Origin: a virus | Lineage: Duplodnaviria; Caudoviricetes | IMG/VR virus record: IMGVR_UViG_3300028048_000001 | Location: 210,242 to 274,241 of that record | Direction: 5' to 3' (one strand) | Length of the DNA stretch: 64,000 bases | Part shown: positions 951 through 59,401 of the stretch, in pieces | Position numbering within the stretch: position 1 is the stretch's first letter | Layout: the number at the start of each line of letters is the position of its first letter | Made by a program: the position numbers and the translations under genes | Notes under the pieces: generated by a model | The model's database searches: none | What the model saw: the letters and a program-made list of their open reading frames with translations, nothing else | What the model was told of the DNA's origin: nothing

Positions 951-966
951 TTAATTTTTATTTATT

Positions 967-3078
967 TTAATTATCACAATCATTAGGTTCTTCATTATCT
1001 ATAAAATATATAGCATCTCTCATTTTATTAACTTCATTATCTTCAATCATATTATATTTATCTGAAATCATATCATTATTTTCTAAATAATTTTGAGGTT
1101 TTTCCATAAAATATAAATCAAATACTGACGGTTTTCTTTTTCTTGTAGATAATGGACTAATAAGAGTTTTACCTATTCTCTGATATTCAAGATTTACAGT
1201 AATAGAAGGACTATTATTTAATGCTGAACCTAATGTAAGAATTTTATATGGAGCATTTTTAATTGACCAATTTGGCATAGATAATATATCTTCTGGATCT
1301 CTCATTTGATTAGATACAATAGTTTCAAGATGAATAGCAGAAATATCAATACCACCATCCATATTAGCAGTAATAAATTCTTTAACTATTTCATCTTTTG
1401 TATAACTACTAGTATCTTTTTCTCTATTAATAATATTTTTTGATCTTTCTAGAGTTCTTTGTAATTCTTTATTTTGAATTTTTACAGTAAATACAACAGG
1501 AATATTTTTTAATTGGTCTAATGGTATAATATAAATACCATCATCATTTTCTTTTGTTTTCTTTGATCTTAATAATTTATTTAAATCTTCTGTAAGATAA
1601 ATATTGTCTTCTTCAGATGTATGGAAAGTAATAATATTTCCATTTGGATATCTAATATCAAACGATGGAGTATATTCTTCATACTGAATAGTAGAGTCTT
1701 CTGAATCATCTTCATCATCTGACGTAAATTTATTTGAATCTAATATCATATAATATCCATCTAATTCTACATCTTCTTGTATAGATATCATATTAAGATT
1801 TAATTCAAAAATATCAAAAAATTCAGAATTCCATTTCATTTCAATTACAGAAGATTCTAGTAAATGCTTTGCTGATAAAAGCATCTGTGTATATTTTGAA
1901 GATAATAATTCTGCTGCTATTTTACCAGGGTTAATATCTCTATTTACATAATAAAGATCGCCATAGCATTTCTTGCAAATTCCATTTCCATGAGCATAAG
2001 ATGCACATGTAATTGGAGATCTAAAATATAATGTCTGACCAATTAAATGATAATCTCTGTCTTTATCTAATAAATAATCAATACCTTCTGGATTAAATTT
2101 ATAATATCTTTTATCATATTTAGATAACCAATTAGAATCTTTAATAAATACTTTAATAAAATTTTTTGTATCACAAGAATATTCTGAATCTGGATTAAAG
2201 AATGTATCAAGATTATTAGTTTCAAGTAATCTTGCAAAAGCTCCAGATGTACCAACATTCATTTTTTGTAATATCTGTGCTGTTCTTCCAACAGATGAAT
2301 CTATAACATAAGATTCTGGATTAGATACACCACCATTCATAAATGAATTATTAATAATATATGGAAATATACCACCATGCCCATCTGGTTTAGTACCAAT
2401 ATTTACAGATACTTCTTTAAACTGCTTTGGAGATATTGCTTCTTGTGATATAAATGAATCTCTTAAACAATGATCATTATTTTTAATATAATTAATTTGA
2501 GTTTGAGTATATTTCATTCCAATATCTTTTACATCTTCAATCGGAACGTTAGATAAATCTGCATGTATAGATTGATTAAATTCTGGATATTTTTCCATTA
2601 AATCTAATGTATCTTTAAAATTTACTGTATTTGATAAATACATAGCAAATTCATCTATATATTTAAATTTATAAATAGTTTCATCAATAAGATTGTTTAA
2701 TGTAATAAAATCTACATCTTTTGAATGTAATTTTATTAACATATTAAAATATTCTTTTATAGTACGTTTAGTTATTTGTCTTGTATCTATTAAATGAATT
2801 ACTGTAATAGGATCTTTTATATAAATAGGAAAAGTCCAAAAGATTAATTGAAAATAAAATTCTGGAATTGTTAATCTCAAATAATTTCCATCATCTAAAT
2901 GAATTCCTATTTTAAGAGATTGTACTTCTGGATCTTCTATACCATCTCTCATAATATTAAGTAATCCATTAAAATAATCAACATAATTTTTAGGAGTTAT
3001 ATCTTTTGTATATAAATCCATATATTTGTTTTGAATAAGTGTAACAAATGGTCCATAATTTTCAAAGTATTCTACCAT
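967..3078 (-). CDS. Phage multisubunit RNA polymerase beta' C-terminal subunit (phiKZ gp74-like, probably non-virion)
   Basis: Zn site RSPITC...GICKKCYG, trigger-loop-like TQMLLSAKH, IHLETIV motif. Lies next to an SF2 helicase, as in phiKZ-like phages. Confidence 0.85.
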   Translation of the reverse strand: MVEYFENYGPFVTLIQNKYMDLYTKDITPKNYVDYFNGLLNIMRDGIEDPEVQSLKIGIHLDDGNYLRLTIPEFYFQLIFWTFPIYIKDPITVIHLIDTRQITKRTIKEYFNMLIKLHSKDVDFITLNNLIDETIYKFKYIDEFAMYLSNTVNFKDTLDLMEKYPEFNQSIHADLSNVPIEDVKDIGMKYTQTQINYIKNNDHCLRDSFISQEAISPKQFKEVSVNIGTKPDGHGGIFPYIINNSFMNGGVSNPESYVIDSSVGRTAQILQKMNVGTSGAFARLLETNNLDTFFNPDSEYSCDTKNFIKVFIKDSNWLSKYDKRYYKFNPEGIDYLLDKDRDYHLIGQTLYFRSPITCASYAHGNGICKKCYGDLYYVNRDINPGKIAAELLSSKYTQMLLSAKHLLESSVIEMKWNSEFFDIFELNLNMISIQEDVELDGYYMILDSNKFTSDDEDDSEDSTIQYEEYTPSFDIRYPNGNIITFHTSEEDNIYLTEDLNKLLRSKKTKENDDGIYIIPLDQLKNIPVVFTVKIQNKELQRTLERSKNIINREKDTSSYTKDEIVKEFITANMDGGIDISAIHLETIVSNQMRDPEDILSMPNWSIKNAPYKILTLGSALNNSPSITVNLEYQRIGKTLISPLSTRKRKPSVFDLYFMEKPQNYLENNDMISDKYNMIEDNEVNKMRDAIYFIDNEEPNDCDN

Positions 3079-15939: not shown

Positions 15940-16082
15940 TACTTTTGATATAAATATAAACAAGTCAAGAAGTATAAAATGTATGATAAGAAGGATTTTT
16001 TTGTTTATATCAAAAGTATTTATATATTCGGAGGTTTATAAATTTAAAAATTCCTCGGTGACTTATATACTTCTTGACTTTT
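15940..16082 (-). promoter_or_regulatory. Structured 5' leader or ncRNA candidate with two interleaved 15-bp inverted repeats
   Basis: 15940-15954 pairs with 16004-16018 and 15962-15976 pairs with 16066-16080; late-type promoter AACATTTGAATA at 16093-16082. Confidence 0.55.
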
Positions 16083-24425: not shown

Positions 24426-24554
24426 ATGTATACTACTCTTCTTAGAATGCGTAGAAAAGGAAAACTTACCGATCAACAGGTAGATCAAGCTGTTGCAAAG
24501 GGTTGGATCACCAGTGCTCAAGGAGAATATATTAAATCTATTCCTAATGGCTAA
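24426..24554 (+). CDS. XkdX-like small phage protein
   Basis: Manual translation MYTTLLRMRRKGKLTDQQVDQAVAKGWITSAQGEYIKSIPNG after an AGGAGG SD; has the V.KGWIT motif. Confidence 0.7.
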   Translation: MYTTLLRMRRKGKLTDQQVDQAVAKGWITSAQGEYIKSIPNG

Positions 24555-42771: not shown

Positions 42772-42981
42772 TTAATCTATTAAATCTAATGATTGTTTAA
42801 TTGTATCTTTGCTGATTAGCATATATGAAATAATTCTATCATGAACAAATGGAATCAATAATCCTTCTTTAACAGCAATAGGTTCGTATACTTTATCATT
42901 AAGATAAATACGTCTAACAACATTATTACTTAATTCTTTTATTTCTTTATAACTGCATAATTCTTTAGTTGTAGTAGTCAT
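42772..42981 (-). CDS. Small hypothetical protein
   Basis: 69 aa; GGAGG SD inside the upstream gene. Confidence 0.55.
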   Translation of the reverse strand: MTTTTKELCSYKEIKELSNNVVRRIYLNDKVYEPIAVKEGLLIPFVHDRIISYMLISKDTIKQSLDLID

Positions 42982-43421
42982 AATTTTACCTCCATATTAT
43001 TGATTCCATTTTCTAATAGATTTAAATATCCATCTATATCATCTATTTTATATAATCTTTGCACTTCTTGTAGATAAATAGCGCTTTCTATAGTTCTTTC
43101 TTTATAAAAATTATCTATAGCTTTTTTTAATGCAAAATCCCAATCGATTTTTATATCTTGATTTTTCCAAAATTTTGTATTACACGAATCGTCTTTATTT
43201 ATTTTCTTTGAAATTTCTAATGTATGATTAATTAATCTCTTTTTTATTTTTGGATATTTAACTTTAGTATTGATTAAATTGCTTAAACTTTTATTAGATA
43301 CTATCCATTTTCTACCATTTTTATATGCATATAAAGAACCATTATTTATTAGATTATTAATAGTTTTATAACTGCATTCTAATTTTTTCATAGCTTCAGA
43401 CATAGTGATACTGTCTAGCAT
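42978..43421 (-). CDS. Excisionase/MerR-like helix-turn-helix DNA-binding protein
   Basis: TMSEAMKKLECSYKTINNLINNGSL.AYK.GRKWIV (HTH_17 pattern). Confidence 0.8.
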   Translation of the reverse strand: MLDSITMSEAMKKLECSYKTINNLINNGSLYAYKNGRKWIVSNKSLSNLINTKVKYPKIKKRLINHTLEISKKINKDDSCNTKFWKNQDIKIDWDFALKKAIDNFYKERTIESAIYLQEVQRLYKIDDIDGYLNLLENGINNMEVKL

Positions 43422-43512: not shown

Positions 43513-44079
43513 TTAGATTTGAATATCTTGCTTAACTTTTTTTATAAAATTTTTATTAATATTACTATTAGAAATATCGTCTAAATAATTTTTAAGAATA
43601 TTTATTATTTTTTTCTTGCATTGTAATTCAACCTTTCTTTGAGAATCATTAGTGACACCATCTCCAGAAGAGATTTCTAGCACCCTTCCAGATTTAGTAT
43701 GTATAATTGAAAAAATTATTACATTACCTGGCTTAATATCTAATATATACATTTTATTTTCTTCAATATCAGAAAAATATATTGGAATAAATTTATTTAA
43801 TGATTGTGTATATGTAATATCTTTAGTGATAGAAATATCTTCAGAGTATTTTTCTAATCTATCCCAATATAAAATAAATATTTTTTCTAAATTAAATAAA
43901 TATTCTACAGTCCAAGTATCTTTAATAAGATTATCTATCATATTGATTACTTGATTTTTTAATTTTTTATATTCTCTTTTTTCTTTTATTTTCAACCATC
44001 CAAAAGGTTTATTGAATTCATTATTTAAATCTCTTATCAAATCACAGCATTGAAAAATAGACAATAATGGATTTATCAT
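43513..44079 (-). CDS. Hypothetical protein
   Basis: 188-aa ORF with SD. Confidence 0.65.
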   Translation of the reverse strand: MINPLLSIFQCCDLIRDLNNEFNKPFGWLKIKEKREYKKLKNQVINMIDNLIKDTWTVEYLFNLEKIFILYWDRLEKYSEDISITKDITYTQSLNKFIPIYFSDIEENKMYILDIKPGNVIIFSIIHTKSGRVLEISSGDGVTNDSQRKVELQCKKKIINILKNYLDDISNSNINKNFIKKVKQDIQI

Positions 44080-53823: not shown

Positions 53824-55056
53824 TCATACTCCCAATATAGAATCTATAATATTATTATAAGAAGAATTATTATTTTCTGTAATTTCAACAGGTTTAGCCA
53901 ATAAAGTTTCTAATTCTTCTTTAGCTACAGTCATGAAAGCTTGAGCAAAATCATTATCTGATAATAATTTATCTTTAAATCCTTTCTGAGTAAATCTCAT
54001 ATCAGGATATCCTCTAAGATTACAATAAGCTCCTTTCATTTCTATAGCACCGTTTGATTTAAGATACATAAATAAAGATAATATTTCATCAAACCCACTA
54101 TTATAACTAAATACCATAGGAACAGATCTTCCAGATGCATTTGTTCTTGATTTAATATAAGTAAAATCTACAATTTTGCCATATATACCTAAATCTTTCT
54201 CAGGTTTAAGTACAGTACCATCATCTACTCTTATCATATTATTAGCTAAGTATAATGCTGCTTTTCCACCAGGTAATGATTCATTCTGTTTAAGAAATCC
54301 TACCTGTGATTTTGTATGTACAAAAGCATTAATTTCAATTTTATCTGTAATATGATTAATTACAAATAAAATAATATTAGCTGCTTTAAGCTTAGGGACA
54401 ATACGTTTAAAAACAGCAGTATTGGTTTTAGCCATTGCTGTTGCAGTCATTTGTCCACCAAGTTCTCCACCAACATCATCTACAACTTTTTCTGGTGTTA
54501 ACATAGCTAATGAATCAAGAATATATACAGTAGGAATAAGTTTATATATCTCATTTCCTCTAGAATCTAAAAGTCCAGTATTATATTCATAATCATCTCT
54601 ATGAGATAATTTTTCATTATAAATATAATCTATTCTTTCAAAGAAATTTTCTGCAGATACACTTTGATTTCTATATATTAATTTAGAATCGATATCTTCT
54701 GGACCAAATTTAGTAAGAATTTCTCTTCTGGCAGCATTAGATCCACCTTCAATATCATCATAAAATATAGCAGCTTGAGGAAATCTTCTAACAATATTTG
54801 CTGCTATTTGAAGAGCTATTGTTGTTTTACCACTCGACGGCCTTCCTACAAAAGTTGTACTAGATCCATCTGTAATTCCAACGGCATTGTACCAAAATTC
54901 TTCTTCATTTGGTTTTTTAACATGAACTTTATATCCATTTAAATAATCAAGAGGAAGAAATCCTGTAGAATACATAACATCAGCAACAGCTTCATTCATT
55001 CTTGGGTCTTTATTTTTTGCCATTTGTGCTCTAAATCTATCAGCTAATAAACTCAT
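53824..55056 (-). CDS. recA: RecA/UvsX-like recombinase
   Basis: STGFLPLD, GRPSSGKTT, DIEG, ILDSLA, INHI, PGGKA; start MSLL after an AAGGAGG SD. Confidence 0.88.
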   Translation of the reverse strand: MSLLADRFRAQMAKNKDPRMNEAVADVMYSTGFLPLDYLNGYKVHVKKPNEEEFWYNAVGITDGSSTTFVGRPSSGKTTIALQIAANIVRRFPQAAIFYDDIEGGSNAARREILTKFGPEDIDSKLIYRNQSVSAENFFERIDYIYNEKLSHRDDYEYNTGLLDSRGNEIYKLIPTVYILDSLAMLTPEKVVDDVGGELGGQMTATAMAKTNTAVFKRIVPKLKAANIILFVINHITDKIEINAFVHTKSQVGFLKQNESLPGGKAALYLANNMIRVDDGTVLKPEKDLGIYGKIVDFTYIKSRTNASGRSVPMVFSYNSGFDEILSLFMYLKSNGAIEMKGAYCNLRGYPDMRFTQKGFKDKLLSDNDFAQAFMTVAKEELETLLAKPVEITENNNSSYNNIIDSILGV

Positions 55057-55195
55057 ATAAACCTCCTTAATTATTATATATTTTATCAAAATTATAATAT
55101 ATTAATATTTTTAAATTTGGTATTTATATGTTTTTCAAAAAATAAAAATAGAAAAACAGGATAGAGAGACAATCTCTCTATCCTTTAATATTTTA

Positions 55196-55660
55196 TTATC
55201 CAACAGCGATAGAATTATCGTCTTGTTTATCATCATTTGGTATTTCTACTTGTTCAAAATCATTATCAATAGATTCGACATTATTAATTTCTTCTTTTTT
55301 TATTTTTGATAAAGGATCAATATTATCTTTATCTTCTTTGCCTTCTTTATTAAGTCCTAATAACCCCATAGCATTCCTAATTAATTTAGCACTATATACA
55401 AGAATACCAGAAGTTATTGCTGTTTGTGGTTGAAACCCTAAACTACTTAAATCAATAATAGTACAAACATAAGCTACAATTATTAAACTTAAACATGCTG
55501 TTAAAGTTTTACATATGCCTTTAATAAGAATAGAAAATTCAAATTTTTCTCCATTGACTAAACAATTATTAGCAATACTAGTTAAAATATATCCTATAAT
55601 AACTGCAGCTAGTACTGCTATTAATTTTGTAATTTCTACAAATTGAGGATTAATATTCAT
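55196..55660 (-). CDS. Membrane protein, holin-like
   Basis: Two to three TM segments and a charged C-terminal tail. Confidence 0.5.
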   Translation of the reverse strand: MNINPQFVEITKLIAVLAAVIIGYILTSIANNCLVNGEKFEFSILIKGICKTLTACLSLIIVAYVCTIIDLSSLGFQPQTAITSGILVYSAKLIRNAMGLLGLNKEGKEDKDNIDPLSKIKKEEINNVESIDNDFEQVEIPNDDKQDDNSIAVG

Positions 55661-55689
55661 ATTACATTATCTCCTTTCATATTGTTTTA

Positions 55690-56493
55690 TTAAGTTTTAT
55701 TGCTTACGATTCCAAAATTTATAGAATCGTCTTCAAATTTAACAACAAATTCAGCAGGAATATTTAATGATTTAAATCTTTCATCAACTTCTTCTTTTAA
55801 ATCGTTTATATCATCACGATATTCTTCGGATCCTTCTTCTTTAAAATCAGGATATCCAGAATAAACGTCACCATCTACTAATCTTAAATAAGAACTTCCT
55901 TTTTTAGATTGATATCTACTTAAGGCAGATGACCTTTTTCCATCGTCATCAAATTCTTCTGTGTCATACAAATCTATATAATCACAACATTTTTTAATTT
56001 TAGGAAATTTATTGATACAAGATTTAATAATATCCCTACATCTACGTATTTCACTATTATTTAAATGCTTAATAAATTTATTGGTTTTTTCTGTTTCTTC
56101 TTCATCATCAAAAGATTCTGATAAAATATATTTATTAGCACTATTAAAAAATGTAATAGTAGAATAAATATTACTGTCTGTCTGATTATATAAAGTAACT
56201 CTACAATCTCTTGTAATATCGTTTATAGTATATCTTGCATCTGTAATTATTTTTCTTATATCATCCGCATAATCTTTATTTGATGAAGTTTTTCCAATCA
56301 TATAAAAAGCACATATATCTTTATCATTTTTACGAAAAGTAATTTTATCTTTTCTAATTGGATACAAAGTAAATAGATAATTATTTGAATTTTTTAAAAT
56401 ATTTTGTAATTTATTAAATACATTATATGCTCTATCTATTATTTTAGAATCGTATTTTGTTTTAGATTCAATTATAAAATTAAATATAGTCAT
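55690..56493 (-). CDS. Hypothetical protein with MTIF...IIES N-terminus (possible internal head protein)
   Basis: 267-aa ORF. Confidence 0.6.
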   Translation of the reverse strand: MTIFNFIIESKTKYDSKIIDRAYNVFNKLQNILKNSNNYLFTLYPIRKDKITFRKNDKDICAFYMIGKTSSNKDYADDIRKIITDARYTINDITRDCRVTLYNQTDSNIYSTITFFNSANKYILSESFDDEEETEKTNKFIKHLNNSEIRRCRDIIKSCINKFPKIKKCCDYIDLYDTEEFDDDGKRSSALSRYQSKKGSSYLRLVDGDVYSGYPDFKEEGSEEYRDDINDLKEEVDERFKSLNIPAEFVVKFEDDSINFGIVSNKT

Positions 56494-56630
56494 ATTTTAC
56501 TCCAATATTGAATTGTGGGTTTTTATTTTATATTATATATTCTTTACTAAATATAGTCATAATATATTTTTCTTTTTATAAAAAATAATAAAAAATAAAG
56601 CTCCTTACTATTGACTTACAGTTACCCTTA

Positions 56631-56760
56631 AATAATAGATGGATGTCAAGATGTGTACCGTTATCTACCATAGTAGCAGTGGGCCTAACAACGGATGCTG
56701 CAACCACTCTCATCTTGAAACGAATATTCACTTACGTTCATATCCATCCATCTATTATTC
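56631..56760 (-). ncRNA. Candidate structured non-coding RNA (~130 nt)
   Basis: GC-enriched island closed by a perfect 15-bp stem (56631-56645/56745-56759) and an inner 8-bp stem (56646-56653/56711-56718); early-type promoter directly upstream. Confidence 0.65.
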
Positions 56761-56794
56761 AATATGATAATATATAATTGAAATCTTAAAGTTT

Positions 56795-58282
56795 TTAAGA
56801 TTTATTTACAATAAATTTTGCTTTTTTCTTTTTTATATTACCATTTGGAAATTTTTCTTTTTCTATTATATGATCACTATTATAATATTTTTGTACTTTC
56901 TTTTCTAATATTTCATCACTATGTCTTCTGCTAATCATAATTCTATTATAATTAGCATCTGTAATTTCTACAATCTTATCATTTACATATTTTCTATCTA
57001 CATAAATAGCTAAATAAAAATATGAATCTGGTATCCCATCTGGTAATATTATTCTTCTTTTTTCCCAATCCATTACAATTGGAATTCTTCCTGACCCATT
57101 TATTAATAAATCATTTGTATAAACAGCAATCTCTATAAATAAATCTGGATTTATAAAATTATTTAAACTCTCTTGTATTAAATCATCTAAAGATGTATCT
57201 ACTTTAATATCAACAGGAGCAACAAATAGTTCTTTAATATCTATATATTTAACAACTTTTTCTTCTTTATCTGCCATATAATTTGAATGACCATATAATG
57301 GCCATCCTTTATAATTTTCCTCAGGAATATCAAAAAGTTTCATTGAATATACAGTAATACCTTTATTAGGTTCTGTATGAATTTCATGTTTCCAATTTCC
57401 TTCATTATAAAAAGCAAAAGTTCTAGGAGCAGGAAACCTTACAACAATCTGAAACTCAATACCAAAATCTGCAGATTTCATTCCAATTTGTTGCCCATCA
57501 TCAACATCTAAAGGATTTTGAAAATCCATATGAACTGGTAAATTTCTCATTCTTAAAAACCATTCGTAGTGTTGATTAACTAATCTAAGTTTATATAATA
57601 TTGGCATTTGAGAATGAGCATTTAAAAATCTAGTAAAATTCCAAGGATCAAGTACTTGTCCATCAGTATCTACAGCGAATCCAGCTTCTTCTGCAACTTT
57701 GGTCATTAATTTTCTATCTAAATGAAAATCACAATCTATATCATTAGTTTCTGTACAACCTAATCTGAATACTTTACGTAATCTATTATATAAATCTAAT
57801 TGTTCTGCTCTTGTGTTTACTCTAAATTTAAAATTATAATTTATAAGCATAGCTTCAAGATCCATTCCAATATAAAGTCCTCTTTTTGGACATTTAAAAA
57901 ATGATCTTTGCCAAGCAGAAACTCTAAGATATTTGTTAGTAGATAACCAATTCCAATCTAAATTATTATCGTTGAAATCATATTGTAAAGTGTAAGATAA
58001 AGCTATAGCTGGATTTTCTCTAATAGGATATTCTCCTTTGTTAAATCTACGAAAATCATCTAAAACTTCTTTTCCAGATACATGTATAGATTCAAAGAAA
58101 TCTTTTGGAAATTTACTTAATACATAAGAATATACAAATTCTGTAGCAACAGATAGAGATTGTATATATGATGGTATAAATAAATCACATTTTAATGTTG
58201 GTCTAAATCTATCTATATTAATGAGATCTAATACTTGATTATTGGATAATATTTGCTTATTATTTAAAGGAATATTTTTCAC
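56795..58282 (-). CDS. Putative virion structural (tail/neck) protein
   Basis: 495 aa, GTG start after AGGAGG, late-type promoter AACATCTCAGTA at 58315-58304. Confidence 0.55.
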   Translation of the reverse strand: MKNIPLNNKQILSNNQVLDLINIDRFRPTLKCDLFIPSYIQSLSVATEFVYSYVLSKFPKDFFESIHVSGKEVLDDFRRFNKGEYPIRENPAIALSYTLQYDFNDNNLDWNWLSTNKYLRVSAWQRSFFKCPKRGLYIGMDLEAMLINYNFKFRVNTRAEQLDLYNRLRKVFRLGCTETNDIDCDFHLDRKLMTKVAEEAGFAVDTDGQVLDPWNFTRFLNAHSQMPILYKLRLVNQHYEWFLRMRNLPVHMDFQNPLDVDDGQQIGMKSADFGIEFQIVVRFPAPRTFAFYNEGNWKHEIHTEPNKGITVYSMKLFDIPEENYKGWPLYGHSNYMADKEEKVVKYIDIKELFVAPVDIKVDTSLDDLIQESLNNFINPDLFIEIAVYTNDLLINGSGRIPIVMDWEKRRIILPDGIPDSYFYLAIYVDRKYVNDKIVEITDANYNRIMISRRHSDEILEKKVQKYYNSDHIIEKEKFPNGNIKKKKAKFIVNKS

Positions 58283-58366
58283 AATAATTCCTCCTATATT
58301 AATTACTGAGATGTTTTAGAAAAAGAGTCAGTAGAGAATAGTTCTCTACTGACTTTATTAAAATAT

Positions 58367-59401
58367 TTATACACTTAATGTTAAAGTACCATTAGAATAT
58401 GATGCTTTAATACCACCTAACGCATTAGAAGAAGCAGCAGGTAAAGTATAGGTATATTTATTAGCAGATGCTTGAATACTATTTAATTTAATTTTATCTG
58501 CAGCCGACATTAATCCATTAGTAGAAGTAGTAACAGCAGCATAAGTAGTATTGTTATCGACATTATACTTAGTACCAGCAGCCCATCCAGCACCAGTAAG
58601 AACGTATGCAGTAGTTGCATAGTTAGTATTACCAGATTTAGCAGCAGGAGCCAGTCCAGCAGCAGCAGATGTAAAGTTAGCATAAGTAGTATTAGTATCA
58701 GTATTATACTTATCTCCAGCTTTCCATCCAGCACCAGTTAATACATAAGCAGAACTTAAATAACTAGTACTACCATTCTTTGCAGCAGGAGCTAATCCAG
58801 CAGCAGATGATGTAAATGTACTATATGTACCACCAGCAGCTCCCCAAGATCCGTCACCTAATAAGCATTTAGTACTATCTCCATTTAAACTAGGCATAAA
58901 TCCAGCAGATGTTCTTGTTGCTACATTATGAGTATGATTTATATCTGCTTTATCATTAACAGCTGTAACTAAATTAGTTAATGTATCATTCATCTGCTTA
59001 ACTAACAAAGAACTAGGAACATGAGTACTATCTGATATTTGGGTATTAGATATAAGATCTGTACCATCTGAAGCTTTTAATGTGGATGTATCATGTGTAT
59101 GATCTTTATCAGATTTATTATCTTTTAAATCACTAATAGCTTCTCCTATTGAACTATATCCAACAGAACCTATATCTAAATCACCTATTATTTTATATAA
59201 ATATCTTATATTCTTAAACATAGAAGATATTTTAGTAAATATAGAACCATTGGTCTCAGAAGAAGCTAATTTAGTAACATTTGTCCAATTACTAGCAGAA
59301 GAATCATCCGTATCATTAGATATTCCAGTAAATATAGCATCTTCAGATTGGAGAATATCATATGTAGTTGTTCCAATTTGTATTTTATCAACTTGTGCCA
59401 T
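58367..59401 (-). CDS. Tail fibre protein
   Basis: HTH metal-binding fibre motifs, AAGL.PA, NTTY repeats, GLMSAADKIKL, LGGIK. Confidence 0.8.
   Translation of the reverse strand: MAQVDKIQIGTTTYDILQSEDAIFTGISNDTDDSSASNWTNVTKLASSETNGSIFTKISSMFKNIRYLYKIIGDLDIGSVGYSSIGEAISDLKDNKSDKDHTHDTSTLKASDGTDLISNTQISDSTHVPSSLLVKQMNDTLTNLVTAVNDKADINHTHNVATRTSAGFMPSLNGDSTKCLLGDGSWGAAGGTYSTFTSSAAGLAPAAKNGSTSYLSSAYVLTGAGWKAGDKYNTDTNTTYANFTSAAAGLAPAAKSGNTNYATTAYVLTGAGWAAGTKYNVDNNTTYAAVTTSTNGLMSAADKIKLNSIQASANKYTYTLPAASSNALGGIKASYSNGTLTLSV

Follow-up and report, generated by a model that had tools for sequence, protein, structure and literature searches.

A GC-rich, structured element of about 131 nt lies on the minus strand of a jumbo phage genome, extending from position 56760 to about 56630 of the window (the whole 64,000-nt stretch analyzed here), immediately behind an early-type promoter. 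The reading that we favor, and to which we give about an even chance of being right, is that the element is a stand-alone, strain-specific and recently acquired gene for an early small non-coding RNA, carried as a promoter-plus-RNA module in a hypervariable slot. As it stands, the element is an unclassified phage-encoded small RNA candidate and is not demonstrably a new class.

The window makes up the final 64 kb of a virus record of 274,241 bp (~274 kb; 26.6% G+C) with direct terminal repeats, and the element sits about 7 kb from the right genome end. It occupies a gap of 301 nt between genes encoding proteins of 495 and 267 amino acids (Table 1), on the strand that is also the coding strand of every neighboring gene. 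No Pfam or PHROG family could be assigned to either flanking gene. The 495-aa gene has its stop codon 13 nt 5' of the upstream promoter element, and the 267-aa gene is followed by a weak holin-like 154-aa gene and then by a UvsX-like recombinase. Profile matches indicate that the phage encodes multisubunit RNA-polymerase beta and beta'-like proteins (Rpb2_6 at 62.7 bits, with a weaker second copy; Rpb1_2 weak, E = 6.6e-5).

Table 1. Features of the RNA element and its surroundings, in window coordinates.
Feature	Position	Strand	Remarks
495-aa gene, upstream	56795..58282	-	No family; conserved in related jumbo phages
Weak 7-bp A-U-only hairpin across the stop codon of the 495-aa gene	56784..56800	-	Fold prediction
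Upstream promoter element TTCAATTA	56775..56782	-	Directly 5' of the early box
Early-type promoter core TATATTAT-N6-G	56760..56774	-	Predicted transcription start G56760
P1, 5' arm (perfect 15-bp closing stem)	56745..56759	-	Pair probability 0.70-1.0
P2 region, A/U-rich 26-nt arm bulging on the 5' side	56719..56744	-	Two mutually exclusive pairings, poorly defined
GC-rich 73-nt core closed by perfect 8-bp stem P3	56646..56718	-	P3 probability 0.84-0.999
Inner 57 nt	56654..56710	-	Candidate stems 56708-56704 / 56682-56678 and 56676-56673 / 56668-56665; none above chance
Candidate pseudoknot	56694-56688 / 56664-56658	-	None above chance
P1, 3' arm	56631..56645	-	Final 8 nt U-rich
Weak A-U/G-U hairpin plus U-run	56579..56612	-	Not a canonical terminator; z = -0.30
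10-codon remnant ORF MTIFSKEYII	56528..56560	-	Resembles the start of the G001 175-aa slot gene
267-aa gene, downstream	55690..56493	-	No family; starts 267 nt after the predicted +1

The folding signal of the element stems from P1, with a contribution from P3, and both helices are above chance. The original prediction had proposed a 15-bp perfect terminal stem, and this stem is present (56759-56745 / 56645-56631) and is lengthened to 17 bp by a G-U and an A-U pair; G56760 itself is able to form a G-U pair with a U beyond the 3' arm of P1. The window contains 6 perfect inverted repeats of 15 bp or more whose arms are separated by 20-200 nt, versus 0.11 expected, and only the one in the RNA element encloses a GC-rich spacer. 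Other perfect inverted repeats of 15-16 bp, at 15940-16080 (two nested pairs) and 42847-43011, have spacers of 49-135 nt and A/T-rich interiors. The predicted 8-bp stem is likewise found, as P3 (56718-56711 / 56653-56646), which adjoins P1 on the 3' side with zero unpaired bases between the two; a perfect 8-bp helix at the end of the spacer and abutting the terminal stem has P = 0.0028. Since no unpaired base separates them, P1 and P3 could form one stacked rod some 25 bp long. On the minus strand the complete element reaches a folding energy of -45 kcal/mol (z = -4.35), which is 11 kcal/mol better than the plus strand (-34.2 kcal/mol, z = -3.7) because of G-U pairs. The claim that the region is richer in GC than its surroundings also stood, with 38.8% G+C in the element, and up to 48% per 80 nt, versus 17.8% in the 400-nt flanks. 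The A/U-rich P2 region, compared with its shuffles, has a fold z of only -0.52.

The closing rod is solid, but the architecture of the head lacks statistical support. The 73-nt core reaches only z = -0.86, and the 57 nt within it (z = +0.64) fold no better than shuffled sequence. Shuffling the inner region gives a helix of at least 7 bp in 73% of cases, so the pseudoknot core that had been called likely is at chance level. The crossing complementarities on which it was built (56708-56704 with 56682-56678, and 56694-56688 with 56664-56658) do occur in the sequence, and the pseudoknot is sterically possible; however, neither pairing exceeds chance, and the pseudoknot competes with a nested hairpin. 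The smaller hairpins of the original model fared similarly. The AACG/CGUU side hairpin can be drawn in the sequence, but its pairing probability is about 0.03, versus 0.76-0.94 for a rival pairing, and the CUAC-UAUG-GUAG hairpin sits at 56676-56665 but is also no more than chance would give.

The element lies behind a promoter that, judged by its sequence, is a true member of the phage's early promoter class. The motif of this class (G/T, ATATTAT, A/C, A, three A/T positions and TG) occurs at 28 sites in the genome, where second-order Markov genomes have 0.9. When a weight matrix was derived from 30 strict sites and applied with a cut-off of 18 bits, it gave 44 sites, most of which lie 13-117 nt 5' of a start codon; the site at 56774-56760 scores 19.7 bits and ranks 39 among the 44. 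At one conserved position (56766) it carries a C where the local consensus has an A. The site matches the early consensus of phage AR9, AAATATATATTAT-(6N)-G+1, a consensus that rests on differential RNA sequencing (dRNA-seq) and primer extension and is attributed to the virion RNA polymerase; in AR9, one predicted promoter was silenced by a single deviation from the consensus (PMC5312081). The 12-mer at 56775-56764 that had originally been singled out as early-type is present, and the full 15-nt motif that contains it is enriched, but the 12-mer by itself is not over-represented. Given the match to the early class, transcription would start at G56760, one base ahead of P1, in agreement with the original proposal that a transcript would begin at the structure.

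Directly 5' of the early box is the exact octamer TTCAATTA, which is found at only 4 promoters in the genome (1426, 43618, 46417 and that of the RNA element), all on the minus strand. All four precede non-coding RNA regions, namely a tRNA cluster (1426), two sRNA cassettes (43618 and 46417) and the RNA element. The association of the octamer with RNA regions has a Fisher P of 1.1e-4, for classes that were defined post hoc. The octamer plus early box may be a promoter subtype of RNA genes, or else a promoter module that was duplicated. The related genome G003 has one promoter of this combined type, which lies ahead of a protein gene.

Other features also set the stretch behind this promoter apart. 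A gene-free stretch of more than 150 nt follows only about six of the 44 early promoters; these comprise the left-end tRNA/RNA region, the sRNA cassettes at 43618 and 46417, two other sites and the RNA element. The 267-nt leader of the RNA element is the GC-richest among the early leaders and is 2-20 times longer than the others. ORFs inside the element have no ribosome-binding site ahead of them and no protein, PHROG or Pfam match. At a criterion of at least 40% G+C in 80 nt with little ORF cover, the genome has about a dozen non-coding GC islands, among them the element and the tRNA cluster. Further islands on G000:C1 (11623-11795, 126053-126166, 133395-133504, 140182-140307, 184911-185041 and 234668-234794, the last being window 24427-24553) could be additional structured RNA candidates. 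Downstream of promoter 1426, a tRNA-Met is flanked by two GC-rich, non-coding stretches that are each about 280 nt long and apparently paralogous (G000:C1 ~600-884 and 960-1290, minus strand); they contain no ORFs and have no Rfam match at E up to 0.01. The minus-strand early promoters at 155904, 153001 and 197916 stand 531, 155 and 153 nt, respectively, before the first gene with a ribosome-binding site, and the intervening stretches may be leaders, RNA genes or genes missed by the simple caller.

The slot between the 495-aa and 267-aa genes is a hypervariable accessory slot. Orthologues of the 495-aa protein were found at 88%, 64% and about 30% identity. In G001, the source of the 88% orthologue, a 175-aa ORF that overlaps the stop of the 495-aa gene fills the slot, intact at L006:6755-7282, and is followed by the 267-aa orthologue. 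In G003, at 64% identity, an unrelated 169-aa ORF lies there. Neither genome has the early promoter or the RNA in its slot, and the 267-aa gene is thus found in relatives that do not carry the RNA element. Elsewhere in G001 (L006:8618-10028), two extra genes, of 286 and 97 aa, are inserted between a 152-aa membrane-protein gene and the UvsX-like gene; at that position the present phage has only a promoter, which marks another variable slot.

In the searches made, the RNA element is a strain-specific orphan. A covariance model made from this one sequence finds the RNA in the phage's genome at E = 1.6e-43, and in 77 related records (the complete G001 and G003 genomes and 75 further records) it yielded no credible homologue, its output there consisting of short palindromes only, plus one in-gene match with z = 0.09. 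The conserved or covarying structure looked for in related jumbo phages was accordingly not recovered. Searches of GenBank phages and plasmids by blastn and tblastn returned nothing, as did five exact or purine/pyrimidine-degenerate patterns run against IMG/VR and two run against GTDB genomes. The only other copy comes from the same strain in one metagenome and is identical across 55007-58807. Within the phage genome there is no paralogue of the element and no antisense target above chance. With no homologue to compare, neither covariation nor selection is in evidence, and conservation gives the RNA reading no support.

No intrinsic terminator, in the sense of a short GC hairpin with a small loop and a U-run, is found in 56300-57000, and read-through into the 267-aa gene is therefore likely. 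The weak hairpin at 56612-56579 holds an orphan Shine-Dalgarno-like AAGGAG (56606-56601). Because the last 8 nt of the P1 3' arm are U-rich, closure of the stem could double as a release or termination signal; release by P1 closing onto P3 beside this arm would be non-canonical. Farther downstream, the first 13 nt of the remnant ORF, ATGACTATATTTA (56560-56548), recur 67 nt away at the start of the 267-aa gene (56493-56481). This duplication suggests slot-gene loss or exchange via recombination at shared MAIF/MTIF gene starts.

Comparison with catalogued RNAs placed the element in no family, and the original prediction had likewise assigned it to none. In Rfam 15 no family reached its gathering score, and relaxing the threshold to E up to 10 brought up a single hit, a chance snoRNA match to SNORD21 whose 25.7 bits lie below the cut-off of 63. 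No ribozyme model appeared, a ribozyme being one of the functions originally suggested, beside a decoy and a polymerase-binding RNA. Covariance models for hammerhead, twister, pistol, hatchet and HDV ribozymes, riboswitches, pRNA and YrlA gave no match. The element is not a tRNA or tmRNA, again in line with the original prediction: ARAGORN reported none, with just poor, junk-level tRNA fits at 60-80% thresholds, and there was no match to the Rfam tRNA model (RF00005). A type III antitoxin (ToxI-like) mimic would be built of tandem units of about 36 nt, and the element contains no tandem repeat. For Y RNA and Ro, the TROVE domain (PF05731) is absent from the phage genome, while control genomes match; a host may still encode such a protein.

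With no canonical terminator before the next gene, and no further early promoter until window 55101, where the UvsX-like gene follows, the 267-aa and 154-aa genes might instead share an early mRNA of which the element is the 5' leader or a processing element. Its helix, starting at +1/+2, would then protect the message from 5' decay, or the 25-bp rod would offer an RNase III site, and any small RNA would be a by-product of premature termination. A helix at the extreme 5' end of a transcript is a classic mRNA stabilizer. However, this reading is weakened because relatives have these downstream genes although their slot holds neither promoter nor leader. Moreover, a short hairpin is enough for a stabilizer, which leaves the 99-nt GC-rich insert unneeded; the leader exceeds the others in length by the 2- to 20-fold noted above; and a decayed gene start and the orphan ribosome-binding-like site intervene before the gene. 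Precedent speaks for it, in that 5'UTR-derived sRNAs, generated by premature termination, are the commonest class among the 11 sRNAs of the jumbo phage 201phi2-1 (PMC11512511). On balance we hold a leader function, the main rival to our reading, to be somewhat unlikely. A different account, which we consider unlikely, is that the element is recent debris with no function: a foreign GC-rich fragment that cassette shuffling caught between inverted repeats and that came by chance to lie behind a transplanted promoter. Its strain specificity, the perfect, undecayed repeats that suggest a young age, a head that folds no better than random, and the recombination scars in the slot (the duplicated 13-nt gene start and the 10-codon remnant) would all fit such an origin. 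What it leaves unexplained is the register of +1, P1 and P3, the +1 base falling exactly at the foot of the helix. Against it also stand the second perfect helix stacked on the first (P = 0.0028), the promoter subclass shared with other RNA genes, and the failure to find a donor sequence in plasmids, phages, IMG/VR or GTDB genomes.

The inverted repeat could also act as DNA, as a cruciform or hairpin for replication (an R-loop origin), recombination or packaging, or as a miniature inverted-repeat transposable element. It does fold as DNA, the plus strand reaching z = -3.7, and it lies some 7 kb from the right genome end; a promoter followed by an A/T-rich tract recalls oriF and oriG of T4. Yet the element is missing in all relatives examined, which would need the same machinery, and the minus-strand RNA fold is the better one by 11 kcal/mol through its G-U pairs. 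As for a transposable element, the inverted repeats are present, but the element is single-copy with no visible target-site duplication, and neither the 77 relatives nor the scans of plasmids, GTDB and IMG/VR yielded it. We regard a DNA-level role as very unlikely. Lower still, close to negligible, do we set the probability of a diverged member of a known RNA class, whether tRNA-like, a self-cleaving ribozyme, a riboswitch, a Y RNA or a phi29-type pRNA. The closing helix, three-way junction and complementary loops superficially recall pRNA and Y RNA, but no Rfam family is matched at gathering score, the lone snoRNA match at E up to 10 is a chance one, tRNA fits arise only at junk thresholds of ARAGORN, and the genome has no Ro/TROVE gene.

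On the preferred reading of a stand-alone early RNA gene, the element would have arrived as a promoter-plus-RNA module in the accessory slot; that G001 and G003 have the downstream gene without promoter and RNA argues for the autonomy of this module. The RNA would be made immediately after infection. As the long stem closes beside the U-rich 3' arm, the transcript might be released or marked for processing, and with both of its ends buried in duplex it would be long-lived. The GC-rich head would then be the working part, most plausibly titrating a host or phage protein or RNA as a decoy or sponge in host takeover or counter-defense, a role to which the early timing and the place among accessory cargo point. 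A bolder version, which we think distinctly improbable, makes the element a new immediate-early effector, a virion-polymerase transcript in which pairing of the first and last bases gives a blunt, exonuclease-proof 25-bp rod; this rod would carry a head that titrates a host defense or RNA-binding protein or self-associates by way of its two complementary loops in the manner of pRNA, the whole being a mobile cassette that replaces protein accessory genes.

If expressed, the RNA would add to the accessory cargo that is specific to this jumbo phage strain, at a position where relatives hold small proteins. Expression would also suggest that RNA genes are shuffled as promoter-bearing cassettes, like protein 'morons'. 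The register between promoter and stem offers a clean test of start-site rules for virion RNA polymerases in uncultured jumbo phages, and the octamer plus early box would be a promoter subtype that marks only RNA genes in this genome. At present the element is a candidate, chiefly of use as a locus to which metatranscriptome reads can be mapped.

Several known systems provide points of comparison. The promoter resembles AR9/phiKZ-type early promoters (PMC5312081) in its box TATATTAT, 6-nt spacer, G start and A/T-rich upstream region; it differs in the A to C change at one position, and its recognition by this phage's own polymerase is presumed. The closest counterparts within the genome are the sRNA cassettes at 43618 and 46417, which have the octamer and early box, the same orientation and small, GC-richer non-coding inserts. 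In contrast to the RNA element, those cassettes end in GC hairpin and U-run terminators and expose an anti-ribosome-binding-site stretch, and they do not have its long end-to-end closing helix. Jumbo-phage sRNAs, including those of 201phi2-1 and the phiKZ sRNA upstream of gp182, are similarly short, non-coding and intergenic or 5'UTR-derived, and come from giant phages with multisubunit RNA polymerases (PMC11512511, PMC8244752). Those sRNAs are observed transcripts, one of them conserved between genera, whereas the RNA element is a predicted orphan of unrelated sequence.

Among structured RNAs, phi29 pRNA (RF00044) shares with the element a functional length of about 120 nt, an early promoter near a genome end, ends paired in a long helix, a three-way junction and two mutually complementary loops. 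However, pRNA belongs to small terminal-protein podoviruses, while the element comes from a 274-kb phage with terminal repeats, has no Rfam match and shows loop complementarity at chance level. Y RNAs (YrlA, with Ro/Rsr) are alike in their length of about 110-130 nt, in the long stem formed from both ends and in the folded head; the head of the RNA element, in contrast, is not tRNA-like, has no Rfam match and comes from a phage without a TROVE-domain gene. Lastly, T7-type RNase III sites and 5'-terminal stabilizer hairpins present a comparable intergenic duplex of about 25 bp, or a helix at the extreme 5' end. Unlike the RNA element, for which cleavage is putative, they are about 60 nt long, conserved and without a promoter of their own.
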